Shown: one piece after another, positions 20,440 to 47,484 of the stretch
Layout: every line of letters begins with the position of its first letter
Position numbering within the stretch: position 1 is the first letter of the stretch
Source: Pseudomonas phage Motto
Sequence record: ON843697.1
Strand: one strand, 5' to 3'
DNA length: 49,960 nucleotides
Made by a program: the position numbers and the translations under genes
Notes under the pieces: model-generated
Database searches by the model: none
What the model was told of the DNA's origin: nothing
The model's input: only the letters and a program-made list of their open reading frames with translations

Positions 20440-20483
20440 CATTATGCACATTGAGAACGTTTTTGTTTTAGCAATTCGTGCTG
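20440..20483 (-). promoter_or_regulatory. cassette copy (minus orientation, hairpin-less): CAGCACGAATTGCTAAAA-23 nt-CATAATG
   Basis: motif 20466-20483, box 20440-20447, drives the small peptide + lipoprotein. Confidence 0.5.
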
Positions 20484-20490
20484 TTGTTCT

Positions 20491-20692
20491 TTTTGTTCCT
20501 CATTGTTCGCTGGATGGCACTCCGCACTTTTGCACACGTTTAGACAACAAAAAGAACACCGAAATGCATAGATAATAATAACGGTGAGTAACTAATTTTT
20601 CTATATAATACATACATTTAAGTAAATTATTTATTTATATATATCTATATTTGTTCTTTCTTGTTTCTCTTGTTCAATTGGTATATGCACAC
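20491..20692 (+). repeat. ~200-bp direct repeat copy A (core 20587-20620 AGTAACTAATTTTTCTATATAATACATACATTTA)
   Basis: aligns with 41041-41232; AT-rich with TTGTTC/TTGTTTC reiterations downstream. Confidence 0.7.
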
Positions 20693-20896
20693 CTGATTTC
20701 TTATGAGAGCATCTATTGATTAATATTTAATCTATTCTGGCATTTTATGAAATGGTGTATAAATATAGGGTACTCCGCAGAATCGAGAACAGAGACAACA
20801 AGAAAATGAACATCAAATTTTCAATGACTTATGACTGATTTTGTTATCATTGTCATTCGAGAGCGTTAGCAAAACAAGAAGAACACATAAAAGCCA

Positions 20897-20924
20897 TTGA
20901 CAACGTATAGGTATGATGTAGAAT
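20897..20924 (+). promoter_or_regulatory. sigma70-like promoter TTGACA-16-TAGAAT for the recombination operon
   Basis: consensus -35, 16-nt spacer, -10 overlapping the track ATG at 20923. Confidence 0.5.
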
Positions 20925-20955
20925 GCACATCAACGACAACAAAGAGGATTCACAG

Positions 20956-22011
20956 ATGAGCGAATTTAAGGTTTTCACCTTTGACCAACTGACTAACGAC
21001 GAGTATCACGATCCTAAAGGATGGGCTGCTGAATACGTAAGCGGTTCTAACCTGGCTGAAATCTTTGCAACTTGTCCGGCTGCATGGAAGTTTAAGAAGC
21101 GTGAAGAAACCAAAGCACTTGTTTTCGGTACGCAGTCACATACCAACTTTCAGAGCGCAGAGCTTTTCAATCAGGAATACCGTAGAGCAACCAATCCAGA
21201 CGATGTAAAAGATCTCATTACAAGCCAGGCGGCATTAGCAGCGAAATTGAAATCTCTTGGCCTGACTGGTACAAGCGGGAAAACCTATCCAGATCTTATC
21301 AAAATCATGGTTGATAGCGATTTAGACTTAAAGGTTTTATGGCTGATTGAAATGATCGAAGAATGCCAGGCCAGAGCAGACGGAGTTCAACTTGTTCCGG
21401 CGAAAGATTACGACGCTTGCGTTACCATGCGCCGCGTACTGGAAAACATACCGGAGCACAACGCCTGTATGAATAGCCCAACAGCACAACGCGAGCTTTC
21501 AATTTTCGGCACTATAGGCGGCGTGAAAGTCAAAGTTAGATTGGATCACGTTGATGTTTGCAGTAATGTTTCAGTAAACAAGAAAACTGGCGTTGATCCT
21601 GATGGGTTCCCGATTTATGAGACTGTTGTTTATGACGAAGCAGTAGTTATTACAGACTACAAGACAACAGCAAGCGCTAACCCGAAAGACTTCTCACGAT
21701 CTGCTTTCGATCATGGTTATTACTTGAAGATGGCTTTGCAGCACGATTTATTCAAACGTGCATACCCTGGAGAGAAGCGGCCTGTTATTGTTCGCCTTCT
21801 TGCTCAGGAAAAGAAAGAGCCTTTTTTGCCGATCGCATTCCGCCTTACAGATGAGCAATTGCAGATCGGGCGATTACAATACATGGGCGTAATTAACCAG
21901 TTTGCAGAATGCAAGGCTCTTGACGTTTGGCCTGGATATTCAAACAACGCCGTTGAGGTTGAGTTAGAAACGCCAGCTTGGATCAGAAAGCAGTATGAGG
22001 GTTTTCTGTAA
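20956..22011 (+). CDS. PD-(D/E)XK family recombination exonuclease (RecE/RecB-Cas4-like)
   Basis: start ATG 20956 with RBS agagga; motifs RLDHVDV ... VITDYKT (D...D-x-K); precedes Erf and SSB. Confidence 0.6.
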   Translation: MSEFKVFTFDQLTNDEYHDPKGWAAEYVSGSNLAEIFATCPAAWKFKKREETKALVFGTQSHTNFQSAELFNQEYRRATNPDDVKDLITSQAALAAKLKSLGLTGTSGKTYPDLIKIMVDSDLDLKVLWLIEMIEECQARADGVQLVPAKDYDACVTMRRVLENIPEHNACMNSPTAQRELSIFGTIGGVKVKVRLDHVDVCSNVSVNKKTGVDPDGFPIYETVVYDEAVVITDYKTTASANPKDFSRSAFDHGYYLKMALQHDLFKRAYPGEKRPVIVRLLAQEKKEPFLPIAFRLTDEQLQIGRLQYMGVINQFAECKALDVWPGYSNNAVEVELETPAWIRKQYEGFL

Positions 22012-22053
22012 TAGCACGAATTGCTAAAAATAATTTACGGTTGGCTGTATAAT
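22012..22053 (+). promoter_or_regulatory. cassette copy (+): TAGCACGAATTGCTAAAA-21 nt hairpin-TATAAT
   Basis: motif begins 1 nt after exonuclease stop; leader CAACCAATCAGAGAGGAAACAAT-ATG. Confidence 0.5.
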
Positions 22054-22082
22054 TGCAGTCAACCAATCAGAGAGGAAACAAT

Positions 22083-22745
22083 ATGAAACTATCAGAAAGC
22101 AGTTCCAACGTAATTAAGGCATTATTTGAAGCGCGTCAAATGTTCACTAAGGTGAAAAAGGATAAGCAGAATACACACCTTAAAAACAGATACGCAACAC
22201 TTGACAGTGTTCTTGATGCGATTATGCCAGCGCTAACAGATAAGGGTATCTTTATCACTCAAGATCAGTACATGAGCGAAGACCTGAAATCTATGACGGT
22301 TCTAACTCGCTTTATTCATGTTGAATCGAATGAATGGATTGAATACAGCTTTACGCTTCCTACTCAGAAACTTGATCCGCAGGGTGGAGGTTCGACAAAC
22401 AGCTATGCGCGGCGTTATGCGCTTTGCACCTGCTTAGGTCTGGCGACGGCTGATGATGATGCTCAATTGGCGGTTAAAACGGCGCAGGACTGGAAAAAAG
22501 ACCTTGACCAATGCGAAGACCTTACCGACCTGCAAGAAACGTTTAAAACAGCTTACAAGCAATCTGACGCAGCCAACAGGACAATCATCAAAGCGCACTA
22601 TGACAAGCTGAAAGCGAAAATGTCGATCGCACAGACAACCGGATTCAAGCCAGCAGAGCCAACCGCCAACCTTGCAAAAAAAGAAAAGGTTGAACCGGAA
22701 CCGAAACCGGAAGTAAAATCTCAATCTATTGAATCTTTCGAATAA
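22083..22745 (+). CDS. erf: Erf-family single-strand annealing protein
   Basis: N-terminal KALFEARQMF..LKNRYATLDSVLDAIMPAL matches ERF signature; track start 22053 is TTG in leader. Confidence 0.65.
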   Translation: MKLSESSSNVIKALFEARQMFTKVKKDKQNTHLKNRYATLDSVLDAIMPALTDKGIFITQDQYMSEDLKSMTVLTRFIHVESNEWIEYSFTLPTQKLDPQGGGSTNSYARRYALCTCLGLATADDDAQLAVKTAQDWKKDLDQCEDLTDLQETFKTAYKQSDAANRTIIKAHYDKLKAKMSIAQTTGFKPAEPTANLAKKEKVEPEPKPEVKSQSIESFE

Positions 22746-26858: not shown

Positions 26859-27290
26859 TTAATCGTGCTCTTTGCGCTTGTATTCCATCATGTGGCGCTT
26901 TGTGCATTTCGTTGATTTAGCTTTCCCGTTGCTGTCAAAATCCAGATCTGGACGGCAGAAAGCCGCAGTGAATCCGGCGAAGCCGTTCATCTTTCTATGA
27001 TACTGGACGCGCCGCGCTAGTTCAGGCGAAATCATGCCGCGCACTTTATAAGCGTTTCTTACCGTGACATATGGCACTTTAAGCGCTCTTGCCATCGCGC
27101 CAATTCCGCCGTAAAACTCCAATACTTGCTCAAACCTTGCCTTTAGTCCGGCCTTTACTTCTGGCTTTAATACCCAGCGTGGCGGCGCTTTGCGTGGTTT
27201 CTTATCCTTCCCGCGCCTGGTTCCGTTGTTGCCATTGATGCAGCGCTTATCAATAGCGCCCGTTGATTCTGCGATCCGTGGATTGCTCAT
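26859..27290 (-). CDS. HTH DNA-binding protein (Cro/YdaS-like helix-turn-helix), candidate early regulator
   Basis: GIGAMARALKVPYVTVRNAYK HTH; very basic N-terminus; first leftward gene at a divergent hub. Confidence 0.5.
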   Translation of the reverse strand: MSNPRIAESTGAIDKRCINGNNGTRRGKDKKPRKAPPRWVLKPEVKAGLKARFEQVLEFYGGIGAMARALKVPYVTVRNAYKVRGMISPELARRVQYHRKMNGFAGFTAAFCRPDLDFDSNGKAKSTKCTKRHMMEYKRKEHD

Positions 27291-27301
27291 TTCTCACCCC
27301 G

Positions 27302-27343
27302 TAGCACTTTTTGCTAAAACATTTCATCTTGTTTGTGTATGAT
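27302..27343 (+). promoter_or_regulatory. cassette copy (+, hairpin-less): TAGCACTTTTTGCTAAAA-21 nt-TGTGTATGAT
   Basis: in 86-bp divergent region between HTH gene and helicase. Confidence 0.5.
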
Positions 27344-27376
27344 ATTCATCAAATGGCTTTTAGTAAAGGAATTGCA

Positions 27377-29407
27377 ATGATACCTAACATCGAAAAACAG
27401 CTTGCGGAGTTGGGGCAAGAAAAGATTGAAGCGCTTCAAAAGCGCTTTACGGTTGGTGAGATTGTTCCTTATCCTTATCAATGCGTAGCGTACTCTGAGA
27501 TCGCAAAACGCCTTGCTCGATATGAACACCCATTCTTTATAAAAGCGGCTGTATCAGCAGGTAAAACAATCATCTTTGCTATGGTTGCGGCTCAGTGTCG
27601 TAAGATGGGGCTTAAAATGCTCACGCTTGCTCGCCAGTCTGAGATTGTGGATCAGGACTCTAAGGAAATTAGTGCTTTTGGTGTTCCTAATTCTGTTTAT
27701 TGTGCTGGGCTTGGATTGCGCGGCGCTCACTTTCCGATCGTTGTCGGATCGGAAGGGACTGTTATCAATGGGCTTGAAAAGGCGTTAGGTGATTACGTGC
27801 CAGACGTTTTGGGGATTGATGAATGCCATCAAGTTAACTGGAATGATATTGTAGAGGCTCGCGAGAATAACGAAACGTTAGAGCAGATGAAAACGCCGAA
27901 AGGGGAATTTGTTCCAAATCCTGATTACGACATAACAAATCCGAACGGGAAATGTGAATTCCTGATTGGTGATGATGGGTTTCCGCTAAAGGGTACGGGG
28001 CGCACACAATACACAGTTATAATTGAGACAATGAGAAAGCGTTGCCTTGAAGTTAACGGGCGTGAATTGCGTATATTCGGAATGACCGGATCGGAATATC
28101 GCGGAATTGATCCGATTCTTGTCGAAGATTACAAAATACCTGGGTTTTGGCGTGAGCAGGTAACGAATATTGATACTGATTATTTGGTTAAATTCGGCTC
28201 TATTGTTACGACTCATTTCGGTAACGTTGGCGACTTGGGTTATGACCTATCAGAGTTTCACAGTGAAACAGAATTCGGCGTTGCTGATTATTCAGACGCA
28301 CAACTAAAAGCGATGAGTAACAAGATCCATAATTCGGGAACCATGACGCAACAGATAATGAACATGGTTCATGACGTTATGAAAGATCGCCTTTGCGCCC
28401 TGGTAACTTGTGCTGATGCTCGCCACTGCAAAGAAGCCGCAGCCGCACTGCCGGAAGGTACTAAATACCACATTATCACCGGAAAGACAGGAGACAAACA
28501 GCGCCGCGAATGGCTGAATGATGCGTATGAAGGAAAGGTTAAATACATTTTCCAGGTTAAAGCGCTTACTACTGGCGTAAATATTCCGCCGTGGGATACA
28601 TCAATCATTCTACGCAAAATAGGATCGCTTACTTTACTTGTTCAGCTTTTAGGGCGTGGAATGCGCCAGTTAAAGAGCTATCACAAAAACGAGTTAGGCA
28701 TGGTTAAAAATGATCACCTTGTTTTAGATTTTTCTGGAACAATGTTCGAAATGGGTGCTATGTATTTCAATCCACTGCTTGAACAGGCTCAATATCAATT
28801 GCGTAAATTCCAGAACAAAGAGACAAAGTTTTGCCCGATCTGCAACACTGAGAATTCTTTCTATGCTCGCAGATGCATACATGAAGATAACAATGGCACC
28901 AGGTGCGAATATTTTTGGTCATACCAGGAATGCGAGGATATAAAAGATCCTAAAACGAAAAAGATTATCAAGAAAGGTTGCGGTACTAAAAACGATCCAT
29001 CGGCCAGGGTTTGCCGTTGTTGCGGAGAGCGGTTAAAAGATCCGAATGAGGAATTACAGAGAACAGCATACAGGAAGGATGAATTTTACAAGGTTGTTGA
29101 CTTCAAAGTTAAGTTAACAAGTAACCAGAAAGGAATTCTTTTCCAGTATGATTTACTTGGGATAAATGGCGATAGTTTTACGGCATATGAGACGTTTTGG
29201 GTTCACAGTGAATCTAAATGGATTCGCGGAGCCTGGAAGTCAGTTTGCTTTAAACATATTATTGATAAGAGAATTGCAGGTGCTACGGCTGCATATAAAG
29301 ACGCAAGAAAGGTAATGATGAATGCACATCACTTTTTAGCGCCTAAGCGCGTCACGTGGCGCAAGAACACGAAAGGCGATGATATGATCGGCAACAAGGA
29401 GTATTAA
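27377..29407 (+). CDS. SF2 DEAD/DEAH-box DNA helicase with C-terminal Cys-rich zinc-ribbon region
   Basis: Walker A AAVSAGKT, DECH box, motif VI QLLGRGMRQ; C-terminal CPICN...C...CRCCGERL; start ATG 27377 with RBS aagga. Confidence 0.7.
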   Translation: MIPNIEKQLAELGQEKIEALQKRFTVGEIVPYPYQCVAYSEIAKRLARYEHPFFIKAAVSAGKTIIFAMVAAQCRKMGLKMLTLARQSEIVDQDSKEISAFGVPNSVYCAGLGLRGAHFPIVVGSEGTVINGLEKALGDYVPDVLGIDECHQVNWNDIVEARENNETLEQMKTPKGEFVPNPDYDITNPNGKCEFLIGDDGFPLKGTGRTQYTVIIETMRKRCLEVNGRELRIFGMTGSEYRGIDPILVEDYKIPGFWREQVTNIDTDYLVKFGSIVTTHFGNVGDLGYDLSEFHSETEFGVADYSDAQLKAMSNKIHNSGTMTQQIMNMVHDVMKDRLCALVTCADARHCKEAAAALPEGTKYHIITGKTGDKQRREWLNDAYEGKVKYIFQVKALTTGVNIPPWDTSIILRKIGSLTLLVQLLGRGMRQLKSYHKNELGMVKNDHLVLDFSGTMFEMGAMYFNPLLEQAQYQLRKFQNKETKFCPICNTENSFYARRCIHEDNNGTRCEYFWSYQECEDIKDPKTKKIIKKGCGTKNDPSARVCRCCGERLKDPNEELQRTAYRKDEFYKVVDFKVKLTSNQKGILFQYDLLGINGDSFTAYETFWVHSESKWIRGAWKSVCFKHIIDKRIAGATAAYKDARKVMMNAHHFLAPKRVTWRKNTKGDDMIGNKEY

Positions 29408-29409
29408 AC

Positions 29410-29799
29410 ATGTATCATGAATTTTACGACAAGAAAGCAACAGATACCCGTTCAGAAGATGCACACCAGGTTGATTCTATAGCGTGGTTGCGTTACAAGT
29501 TTCCGACCTGGATCGTGTTCCACGTTAACAACGAAGGAAAGAAGGGGATCGGTCAATCGGTAAAGGATCAGATGAAGGGGCTTTTAAAGGGCGTCCCTGA
29601 CATCCTGATAATTCCTGACAGAAGTCAATGCAAGTATGGATTTATCGCGATCGAGTTGAAGCGAGCAAAGAAATCACTTTCTCACGTATCTGATGAGCAA
29701 AAGAAATTCCTTGAGCGCGTGAATGAAAATGGCGGCTTTGGTGCTCTATGTTATGGCGTCGAGCAGGTTAAAGTGGCAATTGAAGAAGCGTTAAAATAG
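29410..29799 (+). CDS. VRR-NUC domain nuclease
   Basis: IAIELKRAKKSLSHVSDEQKKFLERVNENGGFGALCYG matches VRR-NUC core. Confidence 0.55.
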   Translation: MYHEFYDKKATDTRSEDAHQVDSIAWLRYKFPTWIVFHVNNEGKKGIGQSVKDQMKGLLKGVPDILIIPDRSQCKYGFIAIELKRAKKSLSHVSDEQKKFLERVNENGGFGALCYGVEQVKVAIEEALK

Positions 29800-29840
29800 C
29801 ACGAATTGCTAAAACAGCCGCAAAGGAATGCGGCATAATG
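29797..29840 (+). promoter_or_regulatory. cassette copy (+): TAGCACGAATTGCTAAAA-23-ATAATG, hairpin ccgcaaaggaatgcgg
   Basis: TAG of motif is the stop of the VRR-NUC gene. Confidence 0.55.
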
Positions 29841-29871
29841 CACACAATGAAACAAACAGGAGACACAAAAG

Positions 29872-30615
29872 ATGGCTAAAGATATCACAGACAAAGCAAC
29901 TATTGACGGCATCGAGAAAGTTGATGAAATGGATATGCACGAATTGCAACACGGATCTTATTCGAGTATTGCATTGCGCTCAGGTGGTCATTATCAGCCA
30001 GTGAAGCCAAATGTATTCTACCAGGTAACGGGAAACCGATACGCCGGAAGCCATACGCCTGACGTTGTGCGCGATTTGTGGGAAACGCCAGACGAGATTG
30101 TAGATTATCTTTCCGATCGCTACGGTAAATATGATCTTGATGCAGCCGCAAGCGAGAACAATAAAAAATGCGATAAGTTTTACAGCAAAGAAACGAACTG
30201 CTTAAAACGTTGGTGGGGTAGCAATAAACACATTTGGCTGAATCCGCCATATTCAAACCCAGATCCGTTTGTGTTGAAAGCTATTGAACAGATGGAGCAT
30301 GGAAACCAGATTGATATTCTTCTTCCGGCTGATAACTCTACGGCGTGGTTTAGCGATGCAGTGAAACACGCGGCGGAAGTTATCTGGATTACTGGCGAGA
30401 CCTGGACGGATGAAGGCCGTGAATATTCCAGGACTGGACGTGTCGCGTTTATTTCTGGCCTGACTGGTGAACCAGTTAGCGGAAACAATAAAGGCAGTGT
30501 TATTTTCATCATGCGCCAGTTGAAGGAAGGAGAAAAACAACAAACTCACTACGTGCCAATTAGTGAAATTTGCCCTTCCGTTACCAACAAACGCAGCAAA
30601 GCGCGGAGTATTTAA
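29872..30615 (+). CDS. dam: DNA N6-adenine methyltransferase (phage Dam family)
   Basis: NPPY motif (WLNPPYSNP). Confidence 0.75.
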   Translation: MAKDITDKATIDGIEKVDEMDMHELQHGSYSSIALRSGGHYQPVKPNVFYQVTGNRYAGSHTPDVVRDLWETPDEIVDYLSDRYGKYDLDAAASENNKKCDKFYSKETNCLKRWWGSNKHIWLNPPYSNPDPFVLKAIEQMEHGNQIDILLPADNSTAWFSDAVKHAAEVIWITGETWTDEGREYSRTGRVAFISGLTGEPVSGNNKGSVIFIMRQLKEGEKQQTHYVPISEICPSVTNKRSKARSI

Positions 30616-30616: not shown

Positions 30617-30862
30617 ATGGATGATAAAGTTTTACAGTTAAATGAAGCTGGGTTATGGCTCATGTATCGCGCAATCGTATGTGAAACGATAGTTCAGAAT
30701 GAGCTTGAAGAATACTTTGATCGCGATTTGTGGTCTTGGACTGAATGCCTGGATGCAAGTTTTGAAGAAACGGAAGAGCTTGAGTTTTCGGACTGGCGAC
30801 AAAAAATCGTTGATGATTTGGAAGAATACATTTCATGCGAGATTAAAAGAAAAATGCATTGA
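30617..30862 (+). CDS. hypothetical acidic protein (81 aa)
   Basis: ATG 30617 with RBS ggag; track start 30563 is an upstream extension inside dam. Confidence 0.45.
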   Translation: MDDKVLQLNEAGLWLMYRAIVCETIVQNELEEYFDRDLWSWTECLDASFEETEELEFSDWRQKIVDDLEEYISCEIKRKMH

Positions 30863-30906: not shown

Positions 30907-30936
30907 TATCCAACGAAACGAATTGGAGACGCGAAC

Positions 30937-36444: not shown

Positions 36445-36471
36445 ACTTCATGATCTCCTTTCTAATGCCGC

Positions 36472-37195: not shown

Positions 37196-37378
37196 TTATT
37201 TAAATAATGCAACAACTCGACCGGATGGGGTATGAGCGGATCTCATTTCAACATCAAAATGATATTCACTTTCATATTCACCCTCAATGCAAATCATGCC
37301 GTTAGTGTATTCTATTAATCTATACTCTTTGCCAGGCGTAAACAAAAAGGTCTCACTTGATATGCATTCAAATTTCAT
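37196..37378 (-). CDS. hypothetical protein (60 aa)
   Basis: ATG 37378 after conserved leader; track extends to 37411 through cassette box. Confidence 0.4.
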   Translation of the reverse strand: MKFECISSETFLFTPGKEYRLIEYTNGMICIEGEYESEYHFDVEMRSAHTPSGRVVALFK

Positions 37379-37408
37379 TTTGTTTTCCTCAGTTCGTTTC
37401 GTTAAAAG

Positions 37409-37452
37409 CATTATGCCGGATACGTGATCCGGCGTTTTAACAAAAAGTGCTA
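37409..37452 (-). promoter_or_regulatory. cassette copy (-): TAGCACTTTTTGTTAAAA-23-ATAATG, hairpin gccggatcacgtatccggc
   Basis: TAG is stop of methyltransferase gene. Confidence 0.55.
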
Positions 37453-38145
37453 TTTCTGATTTGCAAGGCAGACAGCCAGGGCGAAGCCGCGAGGCGTGAG
37501 AGAACGGATCAACTTTGTGCGTTTAGACTTTCCGCCGAGCTTTAGCCAGCCAGGATTAGCATTTCCAGTTGGCAACACTGCTTTAGTGTCTGGCATTTCA
37601 AAGCCGTTACCCGTCCAGAGGCAGGTTTTCTTTGTGTAAGCGTCACGCGCCGGAATGATTTCAGGGAAATGAGGATGCTTATCATCTTCCGGCAGGTATC
37701 CACCAAACCCGCAAGGATGGAAAATATAATCAGGTTGCCGCCACATCGTCGATAACACGCTGATCGGATTTTCTACCATGTACGGAACACCAAACCATTC
37801 CCCCAACTCACTTGCAATCATTGCCGTTTCTGTTGCCTTAATCTGGAATTCAGGATCACGCTCACGCTTTGCCGCGAAGTGACGCGAGCCACTAACAGCC
37901 AGGTCAGTGCAAGGCGGAAACGCAATGATGAAATCAGGAATTCCCCACTCTTTACTGATGGCGCGAACGGTAAAACGCCCATCAATCCAGACATTCACAT
38001 ACTCTATATTGGGATGGGTAATGCGCACCTGGTGATAGTCTCCATGATCAGCATCATCGTAATTGAAACAAATCACTTTGTGACCACGTTCCGCCCACGG
38101 AAGCGCGTCATAACCGGAACCGCTAAAAAGTGAAAAAATCAACAT
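37450..38145 (-). CDS. short DNA (cytosine-5)-methyltransferase-like protein
   Basis: motif I LFSGSGYD, motif IV FPPCTD (PC), ENP(ISVL) motif; start ATG 38145 with RBS gagagg (track start 38205 is further upstream). Confidence 0.5.
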   Translation of the reverse strand: MLIFSLFSGSGYDALPWAERGHKVICFNYDDADHGDYHQVRITHPNIEYVNVWIDGRFTVRAISKEWGIPDFIIAFPPCTDLAVSGSRHFAAKRERDPEFQIKATETAMIASELGEWFGVPYMVENPISVLSTMWRQPDYIFHPCGFGGYLPEDDKHPHFPEIIPARDAYTKKTCLWTGNGFEMPDTKAVLPTGNANPGWLKLGGKSKRTKLIRSLTPRGFALAVCLANQK

Positions 38146-38696: not shown

Positions 38697-38698
38697 AA

Positions 38699-38920: not shown

Positions 38921-39115
38921 ATTTAACTTTCCTTTGTTGTTTCAGTTGGTTGACAGGTGTTTCTTCGTCGATGGCCTTAACATATTGCATGATTACGCGT
39001 TCTCTCTTTCGAGTAGTGGATCATGTTACGTATCACGGTTGGGAATCCTGACACTACGATCAAGCCCCTGCGTTGCCCCTCTCCAGTAGCAATCCTTGCC
39101 ACCCGTCTATGTGTG

Positions 39116-39158
39116 TATAATATCAGAATGGTTCAATGTGTTTTAGCAATTCGTGCTC
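39116..39158 (-). promoter_or_regulatory. cassette copy (-) located inside the 3' end of gene 39123..39311 (AGAGCACGAATTGCTAAAA ... ATTATA)
   Basis: motif encodes EHELLK of the upstream protein. Confidence 0.4.
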
Positions 39159-39311
39159 TTTTACCGCGATGAACGGATATCCGCTTAAATCGCCGTTGCG
39201 ATACCTGGCAGACCTGATCCAGTTCCCGCACTTGCTCAGGTATAACGCTTTATGATGGCGATGGTTGACGCGGTAGAATCGACCGCTTTTAACATTCTTG
39301 AAGTATGTCAT
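39123..39311 (-). CDS. hypothetical basic protein (62 aa)
   Basis: ORF. Confidence 0.4.
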   Translation of the reverse strand: MTYFKNVKSGRFYRVNHRHHKALYLSKCGNWIRSARYRNGDLSGYPFIAVKEHELLKHIEPF

Positions 39312-39726: not shown

Positions 39727-39998
39727 TTAATGGCCTCTTTTGCAATGAATGCGATAACTTCACGAAGGTGTTTCTCATCCTTGATTGTTGCCGGAAGTTC
39801 TTCCTTAACATCGTCTGACAGGTAGATATTACCGCGCCAGGTGAATGTTCCGTCACTGTTGATAAAATATGAGCACATCCATTCGCAATCGTTATCAGCT
39901 TCCCAGATGCAAAGCACATCCAGATCATCAAATTGCTCAACTGATAATTCAATCCCACGCTTGCCAGCAAAATTTGTTGTTGTCTTGGATACCATCAT
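39723..39998 (-). CDS. hypothetical acidic protein (91 aa)
   Basis: ATG after conserved leader. Confidence 0.45.
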   Translation of the reverse strand: MMVSKTTTNFAGKRGIELSVEQFDDLDVLCIWEADNDCEWMCSYFINSDGTFTWRGNIYLSDDVKEELPATIKDEKHLREVIAFIAKEAIK

Positions 39999-40029
39999 TT
40001 TGTTGTTCTCCAGTTCGTTTCGTTGAAGT

Positions 40030-40073
40030 AACTATATCAATTCGGCGCGATCCGGTTTTAACAAAAAGTGCTA
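40030..40073 (-). promoter_or_regulatory. cassette copy (-): TAGCACTTTTTGTTAAAA-23-ATAGTT
   Basis: TAG is stop of gene 40071..40289. Confidence 0.55.
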
Positions 40074-40289
40074 TTCAACAATGACGCGGTAAGCGTGATC
40101 GCTCACATACTCCAGGCTGATAACGCCACTCTTGATTAGCTCGTCAATCGTGGCGCTATGCCAACCAGTTTGCACCACGTCAGGAAAGTGATAGCTCATG
40201 CAGTATCCATGATGTCGCTGGATCACGATTTTGTTTTTGCTCTTTTTGAAGCACTCAAGAAAGCGCCTTTCATCGCGGCTCATAACCAT
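40071..40289 (-). CDS. hypothetical protein (72 aa)
   Basis: ORF. Confidence 0.4.
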   Translation of the reverse strand: MVMSRDERRFLECFKKSKNKIVIQRHHGYCMSYHFPDVVQTGWHSATIDELIKSGVISLEYVSDHAYRVIVE

Positions 40290-40678
40290 TCCCCCGACAC
40301 AATGAAGCGCGTGAAATCATCCTGATCGGTGATTGTGTCTTGACCATAGTCAGCCTTGCGATCCGCAATCCATGACATAAAGCGTGAGTTGCGTTGCGCC
40401 ACAGTACCGGAATAGACGTAATTGAATCCCATGTGTGCAATGAATGCCACAAAGCGGATCTGAAAACCTTGATTCTCAAGCATGGCCTGCTCTACCAGTG
40501 AGAAAAAGTTGTCACGATTAACTTTCGGCTTAACCGGAACCATAGTACCTAACTCGATCATGCGGTTGAACATTTCCAGATCCATACGCGCTTTAGATGT
40601 GATGTCACTATTGCCGTAGTAGATAACGCCATTCTCGATCCAGTAGGTCAGGCCATTGTAGGTGTTGGTGTATTTCAT
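40280..40678 (-). CDS. hypothetical protein (132 aa), first gene of leftward early block
   Basis: ATG 40678 after leader CATCGAAACGAACTGAGGAATTCACC. Confidence 0.45.
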   Translation of the reverse strand: MKYTNTYNGLTYWIENGVIYYGNSDITSKARMDLEMFNRMIELGTMVPVKPKVNRDNFFSLVEQAMLENQGFQIRFVAFIAHMGFNYVYSGTVAQRNSRFMSWIADRKADYGQDTITDQDDFTRFIVSGEWL

Positions 40679-40709
40679 GGTGAATTCCTCAGTTCGTTTC
40701 GATGAGCAC

Positions 40710-40753
40710 ATTATGCCTGATCGGTCTGTTGCTGTTTTAGCAAAAAGTGCTAT
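40710..40753 (-). promoter_or_regulatory. cassette copy (-): TAGCACTTTTTGCTAAAA-23-ATAATG
   Basis: first element of leftward block. Confidence 0.55.
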
Positions 40754-42232: not shown

Positions 42233-42477
42233 TGAAAGTCAAGTGCATCAATAGCAGTTGCAATTGGTTCACCCAGGGGCGGGAATACTCCGCCCAACAA
42301 TATGACCACCTCACGATCGCAATCTTACAGGATGATATGTGCTCAGACCTGGGCGAAAACGATGATGCGTGGTATGCGACGAAAGCCAGGTTGCGCGGCG
42401 TAGAGGGTGATATGTACACGATACAGACGTTTAACCCGTTCCGATACCTTGCGGCGTTTACTCTGATTGGTGAATAG
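42232..42477 (+). CDS. hypothetical protein (81 aa)
   Basis: ORF. Confidence 0.4.
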   Translation: MKVKCINSSCNWFTQGREYSAQQYDHLTIAILQDDMCSDLGENDDAWYATKARLRGVEGDMYTIQTFNPFRYLAAFTLIGE

Positions 42478-42518
42478 CACTTTTTGTTAAAACTCATCCG
42501 GTGGATGCTGGCATAATG
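42475..42518 (+). promoter_or_regulatory. cassette copy (+): TAGCACTTTTTGTTAAAA-23-ATAATG
   Basis: TAG is stop of previous gene. Confidence 0.55.
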
Positions 42519-42547
42519 CATTCATCGGAACAAATGAGGAAAACAAA

Positions 42548-42706
42548 ATGGTTAAGTTAATCACCTGGGAACACGAAAACAGCCAGCCACAAACGAGAGA
42601 ATTTGAAACGGTATCGGCTTGCTATAACCTGGCGGCTAATGGCGGTTTCTACAAGGCGCAAATCGTAAACGATCAAGGAGTTGTAGACTATGAGTTTAAA
42701 GCGTGA
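42548..42706 (+). CDS. small protein (52 aa MVKLITWEHENSQ...)
   Basis: not in track; ATG after leader GAGGAAAACAAA. Confidence 0.3.
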   Translation: MVKLITWEHENSQPQTREFETVSACYNLAANGGFYKAQIVNDQGVVDYEFKA

Positions 42707-43548: not shown

Positions 43549-43549
43549 A

Positions 43550-43598
43550 TAGCACTAAAAGCTAAAACACGATCGCGGGGTTATCGTATGGTAGCCCC
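43550..43598 (+). promoter_or_regulatory. cassette copy (+), variant TAGCACTAAAAGCTAAAA with weak box
   Basis: seen directly. Confidence 0.4.
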
Positions 43599-43623
43599 AC
43601 ACAAACAACAGAAGGAAAGCTAA

Positions 43624-43842
43624 ATGAAAAACGTCAAAATCAGGCTCCTTAATGATGGCGATTATCCTTTCAAAGATGAGCACAATCGCACGTTTCCTGT
43701 TATCGTAAATGGTTATATTGGCGATGGTTATTCCGGCCTTGTTCATGTTTATTACGAAGATTGCAAAGCGATCGGTATGTATCCGACTGATGGCGTGGAT
43801 TACCCATTTTACCTAGTTACGGAAGCGGAGATCGTGAAATGA
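43624..43842 (+). CDS. hypothetical protein (72 aa)
   Basis: ORF. Confidence 0.4.
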   Translation: MKNVKIRLLNDGDYPFKDEHNRTFPVIVNGYIGDGYSGLVHVYYEDCKAIGMYPTDGVDYPFYLVTEAEIVK

Positions 43843-44084
43843 GTTGCTATATCATTCAAATCGCGCCAGTCGAGCAAATGCCAGTAGGCGCAACTCTGCA
43901 TTATATCCAGCGCAAAGATGGCGAATGGGACGAACTGAGATTCAAGCCGCGCCGCATTGAAGTACACGACGATGTTATTTGCCTGCTCTCCGGTTACGCT
44001 GGAGCATACAAGACAGGAAACAATTACGGCGCTGAAATAAACATAACTCGCGGTACAAAAATCAAATACAGCACGAATTGCTAA
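43839..44084 (+). CDS. hypothetical protein (81 aa)
   Basis: stop TAA lies inside cassette 18-mer. Confidence 0.4.
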   Translation: MSCYIIQIAPVEQMPVGATLHYIQRKDGEWDELRFKPRRIEVHDDVICLLSGYAGAYKTGNNYGAEINITRGTKIKYSTNC

Positions 44085-44112
44085 AACAGCCTGGAGCGGT
44101 TGCGATATAGTG
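44069..44112 (+). promoter_or_regulatory. cassette copy (+): CAGCACGAATTGCTAAAA-23-ATAGTG
   Basis: seen directly. Confidence 0.5.
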
Positions 44113-44143
44113 ACCGCACACAAACGAACAAAAGGAAATAAAA

Positions 44144-44443
44144 ATGAAATTAGCACGTAACGCGGTATTCGCAATTGTTGACGGCTACAATGTGAGGGCA
44201 TTCTTGCACGTAAATAAAGATGATCTTATTAATCCTTTCTGGGTTAGCGATTACGGCAAAAACGGGTTTAGTGTTCATGGTGAGTTGTGCAAGGCTCTTG
44301 GCGATGCTGGCGGTCATGAGCACTGGAGAGGCGTTTGTGATGGTCATCATGAAATCATCATGATTCAAAGCCACGTAACGAGCGCCGATAAAGTTGATTT
44401 CAAGCGCTGCATGAAGTTCTTTAAAAAGCGCACAAAACGCTAA
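44144..44443 (+). CDS. hypothetical protein (99 aa)
   Basis: ORF. Confidence 0.4.
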   Translation: MKLARNAVFAIVDGYNVRAFLHVNKDDLINPFWVSDYGKNGFSVHGELCKALGDAGGHEHWRGVCDGHHEIIMIQSHVTSADKVDFKRCMKFFKKRTKR

Positions 44444-44509
44444 AACTTCCGCAAGCCCATTCGCTAAAGTGGGCTTATTGAAGCAAGGCAACCAATCAGA
44501 GGAATAACC

Positions 44510-44770
44510 ATGCAACAGGTAAAGATTATCAATAGCGATTACATCACATTCGATCCGGTAGTGTGTGAGATCGTAAACGCCAGGCGTTTTGGCAATGGCT
44601 GGATGATTAAGGTTAGCGAGTCATTCATATTTTGCAGAGATAACGCCAGGGTTTGGAGCGGTGACGAAGATCAGGAAATGTATTTTGGTTCTTGGGAAGT
44701 TGAAGAAGTTAAAAGCCCGTTCGCATACTGGAATAAACTTAAATCAGGGACACTACATGCAGAGCTTTAA
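44510..44770 (+). CDS. hypothetical protein (86 aa)
   Basis: preceded by hairpin + CAACCAATCAGAGGAATAACC leader (degenerate cassette). Confidence 0.4.
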   Translation: MQQVKIINSDYITFDPVVCEIVNARRFGNGWMIKVSESFIFCRDNARVWSGDEDQEMYFGSWEVEEVKSPFAYWNKLKSGTLHAEL

Positions 44771-45287: not shown

Positions 45288-45436
45288 CAACATGGTTATT
45301 GATCGCAATTAGCTATTATGGCGGAATGCAGCCTGTTGAATTTACAAGCCATAAGGCTTGTATTGAGGCCAGGGAAACAGTTAAAAAACACACCCCTGTG
45401 GGTTGGGCTAATACTTACGTTTGCGTCAAGAAATAG
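45284..45436 (+). CDS. small protein (50 aa)
   Basis: not in track; ATGA overlap; stop is TAG of next cassette. Confidence 0.3.
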   Translation: MTTWLLIAISYYGGMQPVEFTSHKACIEARETVKKHTPVGWANTYVCVKK

Positions 45437-45477
45437 CACGAATTGCTAAAAGCGGGGCGCAATACCCCGCTATAATG
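45434..45477 (+). promoter_or_regulatory. cassette copy (+): TAGCACGAATTGCTAAAA-23-ATAATG, hairpin gcggggcgcaataccccgc
   Basis: seen directly. Confidence 0.55.
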
Positions 45478-45505
45478 CAACCAACGAAACAACAAGGAGA
45501 TAACA

Positions 45506-45808
45506 ATGAAAGTTTTTTATTACAGCTTTGCGTCACTAAGTGCTTATTACATTGTTGACGATGGCGGTTTGGTGATGGTTTCCAAAACTCCATTCATCAC
45601 TAAAAACTCACAGCGTAGCGCGGTTAGCGAAAATGAGGTTTTAGAGTTGGCTTACAATGGTCACTTTGCGCCGCATAACCTGAAAGCGGCGGTTGCATTG
45701 AAAGAGTATCGCGATACAAATCGCAAGAAGCGAAACGTCAGCCTTACAATTCTTGGGATTGGCGTTGCGGTGATGGTGTTATCAATTCTTAGCGGGTGGT
45801 GGTCATGA
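45506..45808 (+). CDS. hypothetical protein with C-terminal membrane anchor (100 aa)
   Basis: C-terminal LTILGIGVAVMVLSILSGWW. Confidence 0.4.
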   Translation: MKVFYYSFASLSAYYIVDDGGLVMVSKTPFITKNSQRSAVSENEVLELAYNGHFAPHNLKAAVALKEYRDTNRKKRNVSLTILGIGVAVMVLSILSGWWS

Positions 45809-45987
45809 TTCTGGATAATGACATTGCAACAACAAAGACGATCAACTATCTGCGCACCCTGGCGGATATGCTGGAAAACAAACAGGTATACGTGAACGAT
45901 ATTTCTATTGAATCGCGTAATGTATGCTGGAACGTAGAAGAAGAAACATTAACTTTGCAGACAATGAAGGCGGTAAACAATGGCTAA
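45805..45987 (+). CDS. hypothetical protein (60 aa)
   Basis: ATG 45805 overlapping previous stop; track start 45796 is GTG. Confidence 0.35.
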   Translation: MILDNDIATTKTINYLRTLADMLENKQVYVNDISIESRNVCWNVEEETLTLQTMKAVNNG

Positions 45988-46564
45988 AATCATTCTACTC
46001 AACGCCCCGAAAGGGGCAGGAAAGGACACTGTAGCAAACGCAATTTGTGAGCGCCTGGATTACCCGCGCAAAGCAAGCTTTAAAGCGCCAATGTTTCAGA
46101 TCGCGCTTGCCATCCTGGGGCAACATAATTATTGCCGATTCCTTGACGTTTACGGCGACAGAGAGCAGAAGGAAAAAGCACATGATTTCCTGATGGGTAT
46201 GACTTGCCGCCAATTCATGATCTGGATTAGCGAAGAAGTGATTAAACCGAAGTTTGGTGAAAAGTATTTCGGCAAACGCCTGTCAGACCTGGCCGCTAAT
46301 TCTGATTATCCTGTTATCGTCTCAGATTGCGGATTTGAGCAAGAAGTGATTGCGCTGATTGAGGGCGGTCATGAAGTGAAGTTGGTTCGTATGCATCGCC
46401 AGGGATTCGAGTTTGACGAAACTGACAGCCGAAACTACGTTTACTTGCCAGCGTGCTACTACGGCGAAAACGGATATGAAGAAATCGACGTTGATTTGTT
46501 CGATGGCGATCCGGTATATACCGCTTATGAACTTATTCACAAGTTCAAACTTAAACAGCACTAA
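45980..46564 (+). CDS. deoxynucleoside monophosphate kinase-like P-loop kinase (T4 gp1-like)
   Basis: N-terminus MAKIILLNAPKGAGKDTVANAI closely resembles T4 dNMP kinase MKLIFLSGVKRSGKDTTADFI. Confidence 0.55.
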   Translation: MAKIILLNAPKGAGKDTVANAICERLDYPRKASFKAPMFQIALAILGQHNYCRFLDVYGDREQKEKAHDFLMGMTCRQFMIWISEEVIKPKFGEKYFGKRLSDLAANSDYPVIVSDCGFEQEVIALIEGGHEVKLVRMHRQGFEFDETDSRNYVYLPACYYGENGYEEIDVDLFDGDPVYTAYELIHKFKLKQH

Positions 46565-46599
46565 TTGCTAAAGCTTGCTAAGAGGCATTTGATATAGTG
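46556..46599 (+). promoter_or_regulatory. cassette copy (+): CAGCACTAATTGCTAAAG-23-ATAGTG
   Basis: kinase stop TAA lies inside motif. Confidence 0.45.
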
Positions 46600-46632
46600 C
46601 CTCTTGTCGAGTGAACCAATCAGGAGAATCAA

Positions 46633-46812
46633 GTGAAAACGACTTTAATATATATCGCGCTTTTGGTGGCTGGTATCTGGCTTTTAGATGGCGACTGGCT
46701 TACTACCCTGGGCGGTCTGTTGATTTTCATTGCTGGCGGTATTGTTGGCGAACAATCAGCAAAGGAGAAGAACAAAATAAGCGATCACTTACGGAGCATG
46801 ACAAAACGATGA
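46633..46812 (+). CDS. small membrane protein (59 aa, GTG start)
   Basis: GTG 6 nt after AGGAG in conserved leader GAACCAATCAGGAGAATCAA; two hydrophobic segments; different frame from track ORF 46611. Confidence 0.35.
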   Translation: MKTTLIYIALLVAGIWLLDGDWLTTLGGLLIFIAGGIVGEQSAKEKNKISDHLRSMTKR

Positions 46813-46994
46813 TATACGCGCACAACGAAGATTTTGCGGTTTATACTCCTGGCGTGAGCTATGAAATTAAAACGGTTAATCATCGCAAGTGCGCCGAGTA
46901 TGCCCTAATAACTTACGATAAAGATGGCGATTTGCTAAATACGATAATGCTTACGCCTGAACAACACGAAAACTTGAAAGTGGAGATTTGTTAA
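46809..46994 (+). CDS. hypothetical protein (61 aa)
   Basis: ATGA overlap with upstream stop; 3' part of track ORF 46611..46994. Confidence 0.4.
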   Translation: MIYAHNEDFAVYTPGVSYEIKTVNHRKCAEYALITYDKDGDLLNTIMLTPEQHENLKVEIC

Positions 46995-47443
46995 TGAAAA
47001 TTTTAATGGTTGCAAAGAAAACTGTTGATGGAATTATCACAGAGGGCAAGCAATACGCAGTTGAGGATTTCACCGATTCTCTTTACATGGTGAAAGGCGA
47101 CAATGGAAAGTATGCAATTGTAAAGGAACACTTTGAAAGTCCTTTCTTAAATAGCGTCAAGCAGATCGCAAATAAGGCTGATGAGCTTGCAAAGAAAGAG
47201 CGTGAGCGTGTACGCGATAACGTATTAAACGCGCCTTTTGTTGGTGGGGCTGGATGGCGCATTCATCGTGAAGGTGATGTTACATTCGCTGATATCAAGA
47301 GCAACAATTTCCAACCTAATGCATACTTTGATACCCTTGATGAATTGCGCAAGATTCTACGTGTGCCAGAGGGTGATAACATTCTGACTCATGCCAGGAT
47401 GGTTAGAGAATTGGCTGACGTTCTGATCAAATTGCAGAAATAG
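46994..47443 (+). CDS. hypothetical protein (149 aa)
   Basis: ATG 46994 in TAATG overlap; track start 46988 is TTG. Confidence 0.45.
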   Translation: MKILMVAKKTVDGIITEGKQYAVEDFTDSLYMVKGDNGKYAIVKEHFESPFLNSVKQIANKADELAKKERERVRDNVLNAPFVGGAGWRIHREGDVTFADIKSNNFQPNAYFDTLDELRKILRVPEGDNILTHARMVRELADVLIKLQK

Positions 47444-47484
47444 CACTTTTTGTTAAAAGCCGGAATTCGTTTCCGGCTATTATC
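47441..47484 (+). promoter_or_regulatory. cassette copy (+): TAGCACTTTTTGTTAAAA-23-ATTATC, hairpin gccggaattcgtttccggc
   Basis: TAG is stop of previous gene. Confidence 0.55.

Follow-up and report, generated by a model that had tools for sequence, protein, structure and literature searches.

The window, the whole 49,960-nucleotide stretch of DNA analysed here, comes from a T1-like genome of the Drexlerviridae, in which a compact promoter cassette occurs in about 18 copies. Each contains a version of the 18-mer TAGCACNNNNTGYTAAAA, present in 12 exact copies against 0.00 expected from shuffles, while five further copies carry one or two mismatches (20466, 39141 on the minus strand; 43550, 44069, 46556 on the plus strand). 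All copies are intergenic or overlap gene ends, and each has the orientation of the next gene. A sequence-only reading had reported this family, and all 17 copies listed there were recovered, the one given as 40736 starting at 40735. Two degenerate copies were missing from that list (44428, plus; 5709, minus). In 8 of the 17 copies, the upstream ORF uses the repeat's TAG as its stop codon, and the first-in-operon copies 40735 (minus) and 27302 (plus) have no gene upstream. The cassettes and associated features are as follows, where marbox denotes the segment that matches the host activator site discussed below.

5708..5727, minus: orphan marbox, antisense in the capsid module; GCATTTTTTGTTAAA, perfect 15-mer; adjoins a terminator; no -10 at the right distance; kept in Vc1, T1 and TLS.
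20408..20484, minus: cassette; marbox 20465-20484 (ACAGCACGAATTGCTAAAAC); -10 CATAAT 20441-20446; predicted start 20434; ATG 20410.
22011..22085, plus: cassette before an Erf-like gene; marbox 22011-22030; -10 TATAAT 22048-22053, spacing 1 nt below usual; ATG 22083.
26859..27290, minus: conserved gene for a Cro-like HTH 'transcriptional regulator' (phrog_2856), a rival candidate reader of the repeat.
27301..27379, plus: cassette before a helicase gene; marbox 27301-27320; -10 TATGAT 27338-27343, 1 nt shorter; ATG 27377; overlaps the divergent regulator-gene promoter.
27339..27367, minus: the regulator gene's canonical sigma-70 promoter, TTTACT-17-TATCAT, with a -10 that overlaps the helicase-cassette -10 and a transcript that crosses the marbox antisense.
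29796..29874, plus: cassette before a dam gene; marbox 29796-29815; spacer hairpin GCCGCA/TGCGGC; -10 CATAAT 29834-29839; predicted start 29846; ATG 29872; TAG doubles as the VRR-NUC gene stop codon.
30862..30939, plus: cassette; marbox 30862-30881; terminator-like hairpin GCCCC-GCAA-GGGGC plus T-run; TGT-TATTAT 30900-30905; predicted start 30912; ATG 30937.
34078..34155, minus: cassette before a holin gene; marbox 34136-34155; hairpin CCCGC-TTCG-GCGGG; TGC-TACTAT 34112-34117; predicted start 34105; ATG 34080.
36442..36516, minus: cassette before a DUF3987 helicase-like gene; marbox 36497-36516, perfect 15-mer GCACAAATTGCTAAA; 9-bp stem around -10 TATAAT 36473-36478; predicted start 36466; ATG 36444.
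37376..37453, minus: cassette; marbox 37434-37453; spacer hairpin GCCGGAT/ATCCGGC; -10 CATAAT 37410-37415; ATG 37378; TAG doubles as the dcm gene stop codon.
39110..39159, minus: cassette without a gene directly behind it; marbox 39140-39159 (AGAGCAC...); TGA-TATTAT 39117-39122; predicted start 39110; may drive a structured RNA candidate, 38950-39110.
39996..40074, minus: cassette; marbox 40055-40074; TGA-TATAGT 40031-40036; predicted start 40024; exact leader CAACGAAACGAAC; ATG 39998.
40676..40753, minus: first cassette of the leftward early arm; marbox 40734-40753; -10 CATAAT 40710-40715; predicted start 40703; ATG 40678.
42474..42550, plus: cassette; marbox 42474-42493; TGG-CATAAT 42512-42517; predicted start 42524; ATG 42548; phage Vc1 homology restarts exactly at its 5' edge.
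43549..43626, plus: cassette; marbox 43549-43568 (GCACTAAAAGCTAAA, 1 mismatch); -10 TATGGT 43587-43592 within a GGGG/CCCC stem; ATG 43624.
44068..44146, plus: cassette; marbox 44068-44087 (ACAGCACGAATTGCTAAAAC); stem GCGGT/ACCGC around -10 TATAGT 44106-44111; ATG 44144.
44427..44512, plus: degenerate cassette, absent from the earlier list; GCACAAAACGCTAAA, 1 mismatch to the marbox 15-mer; -10 TAAAGT 44465-44470 within stem AAGCCCA/TGGGCTT; ATG 44510.
45433..45508, plus: cassette; marbox 45433-45452; spacer hairpin GCGGGG/CCCCGC; -10 TATAAT 45471-45476; predicted start 45483; ATG 45506.
46555..46635, plus: cassette; marbox 46555-46574, perfect 15-mer GCACTAATTGCTAAA; stem AAGAGGCA/TGCCTCTT around TGA-TATAGT 46593-46598; GTG 46633.
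47440..47518, plus: cassette; marbox 47440-47459; hairpin GCCGGAA/TTCCGGC; -10 TATTAT 47478-47483; predicted start 47490; ATG 47516.

The anatomy of the cassette was derived from a pooled set of 142 distinct copies, taken from four annotated genomes (T1, TLS, Vc1 and this window) and from IMG/VR metagenomic loci. In 87% of them, the motif [T/C]AnnnT lies exactly 19 nt past the 18-mer, with every other offset at 9% or less. This single fixed offset bears out the proposal that the ATAATG-type box is a -10 element. Between TTGYTA and the -10 hexamer there are 22 nt in 14 of the 17 listed copies and 21 nt in three (22012, 27302 and 39141); the 23 nt reported previously is the same spacing, because the box had been shifted by one base. 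The -10 is of the extended type (G at -14 in 86%, T at -15 in 48%), and a CA (C at -1 in 77%, A at +1 in 89%) marks a consensus start site 7 nt past the hexamer. A Shine-Dalgarno sequence and ATG follow about 25 nt beyond the predicted start. No -35-like hexamer at 17-nt spacing was found in the cassettes and, with a gap of 22 nt, the repeat itself cannot serve as a -35. Instead its centre, at about -41/-42, occupies the position of a class II activator site, again as suggested from the sequence. The conserved block downstream likewise fits an initial transcribed leader in the 142-cassette profile. Its proposed sequence, CAACGAAACGAAC, is matched within 2 mismatches in 8 of the 17 cassettes (about 2 such matches are expected by chance in the whole window), but is not general, and other copies use a second leader type, AACCAATCAGAGGAA. 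We found no transcription start map for any member of the Drexlerviridae in the literature.

Between -31 and +10, 66% of cassettes contain a strong perfect stem, compared with 6% of shuffles. These spacer hairpins are variable in sequence, and the GenBank record of T1 labels several such stems as terminators.

Positions -47 to -33 of the cassette fit the E. coli marbox consensus, GCAHWWWWTGYYAAA (PMC6900184). The window contains 11 perfect matches, where 0.03 are expected, and 19 with at most one mismatch, where 1.03 are expected; this set of 19 coincides exactly with the cassettes and takes in the degenerate copies outside the 18-mer pattern. At the same threshold, T1 has 22 sites, TLS 21 and Vc1 12, and the unrelated phage Arya has none. 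When compared with the 20-bp form of the marbox, AYnGCACnnWnnRYYAAAYn (PMC3709825, PMC2064960), 13 of the 14 specified positions are satisfied in at least 98% of copies. The sole mismatch, an A at position 19, also occurs in the micF marbox ACAGCACTGAATGTCAAAAC, and the phage element varies only at degenerate positions of the consensus (T/C at position 2, A/T at 10, C/T at 14). In class II promoters of this regulon, a forward marbox lies over the -35 region and is centred near -41, a -35 cannot be recognised and the -10 is normal (PMC12052159, PMC10268841, PMC9638938, PMC8811837). In the micF promoter, as read from an E. coli genome, 20 nt separate YAAA from TAGAAT downstream, a distance also found in the phage cassettes.

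The phages do not appear to bring an AraC-type reader of their own. Searching the four genomes by tblastn with MarA and SoxS gave nothing better than E = 0.64 (the MarA query was checked against PDB entry 1BL0), and an AraC/HTH_18 domain was absent from 20 phage proteins scanned against Pfam.

The repeat matches the site of MarA, SoxS and Rob and is placed where host promoters have it, so the early genes of the phage are probably switched on through these activators. We consider it somewhat probable that each cassette is a sigma-70 class II marbox promoter packed together with the terminator of the preceding gene. This reading builds on what was computed: the anatomy, its conservation across genera, the host-consensus match, the micF-identical geometry and the failure to find an AraC-type gene in the phage. 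A forward-oriented marbox of 20 bp, from -50 to -31 (A-T/C-A-GCAC-nnW-TT-G-Y-T-AAA-A-C), would be bound by a monomeric host activator with two HTH motifs: Rob, MarA or SoxS in E. coli, with RamA as an additional candidate in Klebsiella, Salmonella, Citrobacter and Enterobacter. The activator would stand in for the missing -35 contact and bring RNA polymerase to the extended -10 (TGnTAtaaT). We infer from sequence that transcription starts at these sites, that a host protein binds and that binding activates. The start would fall at the conserved CA, 7 nt past the hexamer, and an A-rich leader of 23-27 nt with GAGGA would then load ribosomes. The GC hairpin, usually within -30 to -16, the only sequence-free part of the cassette, may stop or stabilise the upstream transcript.

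Several observations sit less easily with a host activator. T1-like phages thrive in ordinary broth, yet unstressed cells contain little MarA or SoxS and keep most of their Rob sequestered (PMC10268841), so the extended -10 may alone give enough basal activity. The phage element is also much more uniform than host marboxes, with A at -48, TT at -40/-39 and A at -32 fixed although the consensus leaves them free. This excess uniformity could stem from a phage-encoded reader with stricter demands, or from copies that evolve in concert. Moreover, the perfect palindrome of the GAA class, and a conserved Cro-like protein with the element in its own leader, fit a phage factor equally well in geometry.

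The sequence-only reading had pointed to the palindrome TAGCA-N5-TGCTA and named the HTH protein 26859..27290 as one candidate binder. On this explanation the repeat would be an operator with a pseudo-palindrome centred at -42, at which the Cro-like dimer activates early transcription (class II, cf. lambda cI at PRM, Mu Mor) or later shuts it off, and the likeness to the marbox would be coincidence or mimicry. All four genomes (the window, Vc1, T1 and TLS) and each of the 21 related loci recovered carry the regulator gene; it is one of just three TLS genes with a canonical sigma-70 promoter, which in 4/4 genomes transcribes across an antisense copy of the repeat, an arrangement that resembles an autoregulatory switch. 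The half-sites, at a distance of 10 bp, flank an A/T-rich centre. The predicted fold is a Cro/YdaS-type all-alpha HTH (pLDDT 81), with Xfaso-1 Cro, N15 Cro and YdaS as best fold matches, albeit weak ones (best E-value 0.03), and homologues have precomputed Pfam P22_Cro/YdaS matches. However, the recognition helix differs between the window/Vc1 and T1/TLS clades, with a one-residue indel, while the repeat is identical in both, and the best conserved part of the protein is its disordered basic N-terminus. The element is asymmetric and always oriented, with C at -44 opposite T at -40 and A-runs flanking it on the same strand; the palindrome is broken (TTGTTA) in 46 of 142 copies, and a repressor would not need the exact -10 spacing. 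Since the variable positions are the degenerate positions of a marbox, read by monomeric MarA, SoxS or Rob, the palindrome is probably not a dimer site, and we regard the operator explanation as unlikely.

A second alternative dispenses with any factor: the cassettes would be self-sufficient extended -10 promoters kept alike by duplication and gene conversion, with the repeat mainly a homology patch for shuffling, in a role like that of the promoter-early-stem-loop (PeSL) modules, or an upstream DNA-shape element. The G at -14 in 86% fits this, but the full TG is present in only half of the copies. Cassette paralogues are about 80% identical over about 85 nt, and their discrete centre triplets (GAA in 50 and TTT in 68 of 142) are linked to C/T at -37, as in copy families. 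Cassettes hold 3 of 12 homology block ends against Vc1, the closest relative, and alignment end points are 2-fold enriched at them (p = 0.009), which we take as modest evidence for shuffling there. Nevertheless, the repeat has not changed between subfamilies in which the genes around it no longer resemble each other at the DNA level, so selection must act on the repeat sequence itself, and the host-consensus match in the right place and orientation is beyond chance. We consider this alternative improbable. It is very improbable that the repeat acts in read-through RNA, as a small UAGCA/UGCUA hairpin that with the next GC hairpin marks where the upstream message ends (3') or is processed: C/T at -37 preserves pairing (G-U) on the sense strand only, the upstream stop codon begins the repeat in those 8 copies and a hairpin follows in two thirds, but the stem is just 5 bp without compensatory changes seen, the exact -10 spacing and CA start are left unexplained, and the two first-in-operon copies have no message upstream.

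The repeat itself is already known. Phage TLS, also of the Drexlerviridae, has 18 intergenic 21-nt direct repeats, DR1-DR18, aaATAGCACnnnTTGnTAAAA, stated to exist also in T1, Rtp and Rogue1; stoperator, enhancer and UP-element ideas were raised, with the function put as an open question (PMC11447400, 2024). The window shares this sequence and its classes (TTT, GAA, AAA), and the element is no different; in both it is intergenic, runs along transcription and lies about 76 nt from the start codon. That paper makes no mention of a fixed or extended -10, a start site or a match to the marbox.

Among host systems, the cassettes share with micF-type class II promoters the marbox sequence and its forward orientation, a centre near -41, a 20-nt distance between YAAA and the -10, a sigma-70 -10 and the lack of a -35. 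The micF promoter is structurally solved, in cryo-EM complexes with SoxS, Rob and RamA. Host class II sites are single and degenerate, whereas this virulent phage has about 18 near-consensus copies in 30 kb, most with an extended -10 and with a terminator hairpin in the spacer; binding to them is predicted from sequence. In galP1-type class II promoters, an extended -10 without a -35 is likewise combined with an activator centred at -41.5 (PMC8811837). There the activator is a CRP dimer, while the phage repeat is not a CRP site and is probably read by a two-HTH monomer.

The PeSL modules of T4-type phages, to which the cassettes had been likened, are also repeated promoter and stem-loop units between small early genes, with a stem-loop thought to halt upstream transcription and copies that are candidate sites of homologous exchange (PMC2839356, PMC4122927). 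The likeness holds as an analogy. PeSL modules have consensus -35/-10 elements, AT-rich upstream DNA and a stem-loop beside the promoter; in the cassettes, an activator-type site replaces the canonical -35, an AT-rich UP region is lacking and the stem-loop lies inside the promoter spacer, and the evidence for recombination is weak. Finally, the stoperators of mycobacteriophage L5, the comparison raised by the TLS authors, are also many short asymmetric intergenic sites that all run along transcription. A temperate-phage repressor recognises the stoperators, which have no set relation to a -10, whereas the sites described here belong to a virulent phage and keep an exact spacing to the -10.

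The window comprises all or nearly all of the genome of a T1-like siphophage of the Drexlerviridae; no tRNA genes were found in it. Structural genes occupy positions 1-20000, and the cassettes sit in the early/replication half, where both directions are transcribed. Vibrio phage Vc1 (Jhansiroadvirus) is collinear with the window, at 84% identity over 76% of this half; Tlsvirus, Tunavirus and Klebsiella phages are more distant relatives. Twenty unannotated records labelled 'Campylobacter phage' (e.g. A15a, A131 and A113) align with window 27000-47500 at 73-76% identity over kilobases. As matches to an enterobacterial T1-like window, their host labels look doubtful.

The repeat that opens each cassette, TAGCACNNNNTGYTAAAA, has 12 exact copies in the window and none in 100 shuffles. 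Together with five near copies carrying one or two mismatches, these are the 17 sites listed in the sequence-only reading. All of these sites are real, with one start corrected from 40736 to 40735; two degenerate copies had been overlooked, at 44428 (plus strand) and at 5709 (minus strand, capsid module). The 17 copies are intergenic, run along transcription and are co-oriented with the next gene, and in most of them 72-78 nt lie between the first base of the 18-mer and the ATG. In eight copies (29797, 34137, 36498, 37435, 40056, 42475, 45434 and 47441) the upstream ORF ends on the TAG of the repeat. At cassettes 44069 and 46556, the upstream ORF stops at a TAA within the repeat. For a broader view, 142 distinct cassette sequences were collected from the window, Vc1, T1, TLS and multi-copy IMG/VR loci. 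In 95 of these, AAA or GAA precedes the TAG, so that the last residue of a protein ending there is fixed as Lys or Glu. The IMG/VR pattern scan gave many single chance matches in unrelated contigs, and several copies together only in contigs of ~50 kb.

The repeat itself has already been described. The 2024 re-annotation of phage TLS lists 18 intergenic 21-nt direct repeats, aaATAGCACnnnTTGnTAAAA, which run along transcription ~76 nt ahead of start codons and fall into classes A, T and G; similar repeats are carried by T1, Rtp and Rogue1 (PMC11447400). The window holds 12 exact and 5 near copies of this consensus, and we recovered the TLS copies at their published coordinates. The same authors report only three canonical sigma-70 promoters in TLS, propose stoperators, enhancer sites or UP elements, and list the function of the repeats as an open question, describing no -10 box, start site or host factor (PMC11447400). 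In the searchable literature, no earlier work identifies the cassettes as class II marbox promoters, the reading proposed here.

Within the 142 cassettes, a hexamer of the form [T/C]AnnnT lies exactly 19 nt past the 18-mer in 87% of cases, and any other offset accounts for at most 9%. This single offset bears out the earlier proposal that the ATAATG box is a -10 element. The fixed gap between repeat and box was likewise confirmed: counted to the hexamer, which is shifted by one base relative to the box as first drawn with a 23-nt gap, TTGYTA is followed by 22 nt in 14 of the 17 window copies and by 21 nt in the other three.

Consensus profile of the 123 cassettes with the hexamer at 19 nt, with the hexamer numbered -12 to -7.
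-52 to -50: AAA
-49 to -44: TAGCAC
-43 to -41: (T/G)(T/A)(T/A)
-40 to -32: TTG(C/T)TAAAA
-31: C
-30 to -16: free sequence
-15 and -14: T (48%) and G (86%)
-12 to -7: TAtaaT, with A at -11 and T at -7 invariant
-1 and +1: C (77%) and A (89%)
from +1: A-rich leader
+14 to +18: GAGGA
about +24 to +28: start codon

No -35 element is present, since nothing matches at a spacing of 16-18 nt and the hexamer at 17 nt reads AAAAnn. TTGYTA fits a -35 at four of six positions, but in 87% of copies 22 nt separate it from the -10, so that the repeat is not a -35, as had been argued from the window alone. The predicted box, at -50 to -31, overlaps the -35 region and is centred near -41, which agrees with the class II activator-type position suggested earlier. 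By sequence, the cassettes have the anatomy of an extended -10 sigma-70 promoter that lacks a -35 and whose start site lies at the canonical distance. The spacer keeps its length but has a different sequence in each copy, so that the length is under selection. We regard it as highly probable that the cassettes are promoters, and the view that they depend on an activator is well supported. Standard promoter consensus scans detect almost none of them; with the cassette model, start sites, true start codons and terminators can be predicted for the majority of early genes in the Drexlerviridae.

The leaders fall into two families (for example, window 40013-40025 versus 22063-22080 and 46614-46630): CAACGAAACGAAnnGAGGA, mostly after TTGTTA-type boxes, and AACCAATCAGAGGAA, both of which recur in T1 and TLS. 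This suggests that cassettes are built from exchangeable sub-modules, or that they undergo concerted evolution.

The upstream element matches a host activator site. The E. coli MarA site has been given as 5'-GCAHWWWWTGYYAAA-3' (PMC6900184). This 15-mer matches the window perfectly at 11 sites (0.03 expected) and with no more than one mismatch at 19 (1.03 expected); the 19 are the 17 cassettes and the two degenerate copies, with no other site in the window. With the same tolerance there are 22 matches in T1, 21 in TLS and 12 in Vc1 (four of them perfect in Vc1, and 11-12 in each of the other three genomes, which hold 19-22 matches), and none in a 24.5-kb stretch of the unrelated phage Arya. The classical 20-mer marbox, AYnGCACnnWnnRYYAAAY(n) (PMC3709825, PMC2064960), fits equally closely, with 13 of its 14 specified positions satisfied by at least 98% of copies and exactly one mismatch in 16 of the 19 window copies. 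The sole misfit, A for Y at position 19, is shared with the micF marbox. The polymorphic positions of the repeat (T/C at -49, A/T at -41 and C/T at -37) are the degenerate marbox positions Y2, W10 and Y14. The copy in the capsid module is an orphan: window 5708-5727 (minus strand) carries a perfect marbox 15-mer, GCATTTTTTGTTAAA, antisense within the capsid genes, adjoining a terminator hairpin and lacking a -10 at the usual spacing. It is conserved at the corresponding position in Vc1, T1 and TLS (DR7 of TLS).

In class II promoters, a forward box overlaps the -35 region and is centred near -41, and a normal -10 is present with no recognisable -35 (PMC12052159, PMC10268841, PMC9638938, PMC8811837). 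All cassettes are forward-oriented, with GCAC distal and AAA proximal to the -10 on the non-template strand, as is micF, a class II promoter solved by cryo-EM with SoxS and RamA, whose box is centred at -41.5 or ~-41 and whose top strand reads CACT-7N-AAA (PMC8811837, PMC9638938). Read from an E. coli chromosome, micF consists of acAGCACTGAATGTCAAAAc, 18 nt, TAGAAT, 7 nt and the micF start, and the distance from YAAA to the hexamer is 20 nt both in micF and in the phage cassettes. MarA-type proteins bind an asymmetric site as monomers (PMC6900184), which would explain why the phage element is always oriented despite its partly palindromic look. By sequence and spacing, the upstream element is thus a predicted marbox, and the cassette has the geometry of a class II marbox promoter.

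Which protein would read it? The recorded hosts of these T1-like phages are enterobacteria that possess Rob, MarA and SoxS (or RamA). No AraC-type protein was found in the phages: tblastn of the four genomes with MarA (query checked against PDB 1BL0) and SoxS gave a best E-value of 0.64, and none of twenty early phage proteins matched the AraC/HTH_18 Pfam families. Host Rob, MarA and SoxS, joined by RamA in Klebsiella, Salmonella and relatives, are thus the readers that require the fewest assumptions, and we consider proteins of this type the somewhat better than even choice. MarA and SoxS are produced under stress, and T1-like phages multiply well in plain broth. Rob has the highest marbox affinity, yet is largely aggregated without inducers (PMC10268841). 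Growth in broth, where the activators are scarce or aggregated, is thus the main weakness of the host-activator model. The extended -10 may provide basal activity that host activators would boost. Our literature search found neither start-site maps for Drexlerviridae nor papers tying T1-like phages to the marbox, marA or soxS. In the Vibrio phage Vc1, cassette positions are kept and many copies have decayed (for example TTGCAAAAA, TTGATAAAA, CAGCAG, and CAAAAT as -10). If the Vibrio label is right, this could reflect relaxed selection in a host with other activators.

An unlikely alternative is that the repeat is read by the phage's own Cro-like regulator (26859-27290, minus strand; phrog_2856). 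This protein is conserved and modelled as an all-alpha Cro/YdaS-like HTH fold (pLDDT 81), its best fold matches being Xfaso-1 Cro, N15 Cro and YdaS, every one with a weak E-value. In each of the four genomes the gene is preceded by a canonical sigma-70 promoter, whose -10 overlaps that of the divergent helicase cassette and whose transcript crosses the marbox antisense; this arrangement is suggestive of a switch. However, clades with an identical repeat differ in the recognition helix, including an indel, so that the co-variation test was negative, and conservation is highest in a disordered basic N-terminus rather than in the HTH. The regulator homologues found all lie in Drexlerviridae-sized contigs, and therefore offer no phylogenetic contrast. 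The face-to-face promoters share their -10 region at window 27301-27367 (helicase cassette on the plus strand, regulator promoter on the minus strand) in the four genomes, and in the regulator leader the antisense marbox lies only 12 nt ahead of the start codon. The most conserved regulator residues, 5-34 (STGEIDKRxINGNNGTRRGKDKKPRK), are predicted to be disordered (pLDDT <50).

Other readings of the repeat were rejected. A site for Lrp, with its YAAGHAWATTWTDCTR-like consensus, YAGHAWATTWTDCTR, fits in its arms but leaves the invariant C at -44 and the flanks unexplained, and was set aside in favour of the marbox, to which all conserved positions fit. A sigma-54 promoter (GG and GC exactly 10 nt apart; TGGCAC-N5-TTGC) would need GG where the repeat has AG, the TTGC of the repeat is 2 nt too close, and the conserved -10 and CA start would remain unexplained. 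An UP element is discounted by CACnnnTTG at -46 to -38, which has no A-tract, though the centre is A/T-rich.

One cassette is followed by a sequence of separate interest. Behind cassette 39141, ~155 nt of conserved sequence (38950-39112, minus strand) begin exactly at the predicted start site. The sequence is missing from the orthologous TLS cassette and is common to the unrelated Jilinvirus phage Arya and four Arya-like IMG/VR contigs, with an identical 62-nt core. Conservation across the downstream 'ATG' region is in different reading frames, so the sequence is non-coding. RNAalifold on five sequences predicts 46 pairs, of which 15 show compensatory double changes. No Rfam family matched at gathering score in the whole window, nor at E up to 1 in ~38600-39300. 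The element is a candidate for a new structured phage RNA moved between phage families.

It is conceivable, though we hold this only tentatively, that a virulent enterobacterial phage family has wired its early and middle genes to the host stress activators MarA, SoxS, Rob and RamA. Lytic phages normally carry strong, self-sufficient promoters or factors of their own, and early genes dependent on host stress regulators would be an unusual strategy. If the early and middle genes are wired in this way, bile salts, salicylate, redox stress and antibiotics would tune infection, and better hosts would be found in mar or ram up-mutants, which are common among multidrug-resistant clinical isolates. 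Replicating phage DNA, with its hundreds of consensus marboxes, could also titrate the activators off the host resistance regulon. The same regulators raise efflux through AcrAB-TolC and lower porins, and TolC, the TLS receptor, is itself marbox-controlled. Drexlerviridae are often used in Klebsiella and E. coli phage therapy, on which, as on phage-antibiotic combinations, the regulator link would bear. The marbox reading also speaks to the question that the TLS authors left open on repeat function in T1-like phages.

The cassettes also carry hairpins. A strong perfect stem lies between -31 and +10 in 66% of cassettes against 6% of shuffles, with a different stem sequence in each copy. In one half of these cassettes the stem is confined to the spacer, with its end at -13, and in the other half it encloses or overlaps the -10, with its end near -1. 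Since they end before the start site, the stems belong to transcripts arriving from upstream. A T-run follows only some of them, the T-rich -10 region follows several, and the T1 record annotates several cassette stems as rho-independent terminators. The cassette would thus be terminator and promoter in one. Three ends of homology blocks with Vc1 lie inside cassettes (20459, 37371 and 42473), and in one case the cassette is retained and the gene behind it replaced. Of the 159 distinct end points in 119 loci, 16 lie in cassettes, whose share of the region is 5.2% (p = 0.009), with noisy end points in distant relatives. These data fit exchange at repeats, for which they are weak evidence.

Host class II promoters, like the cassettes, combine a sigma-70 -10 with no recognisable -35 (PMC10268841). 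A cassette of terminator plus promoter matches the 'transcripton' idea, credited in the TLS paper to the authors of the T1 genome (PMC11447400). Exchange at repeats has been proposed for the promoter-early-stem-loop (PeSL) cassettes of T4-type phages (PMC2839356, PMC4122927), and the sequence-only reading had drawn this comparison. The promoter does not fit this comparison: PeSLs have a consensus sigma-70 -35 and -10 with an AT-rich upstream region, whereas the cassettes have no -35 at 16-18 nt. The stem-loop of a PeSL is adjacent to the promoter and acts as a terminator, and the stems of the cassettes lie inside the promoter itself, at -31 to -1.
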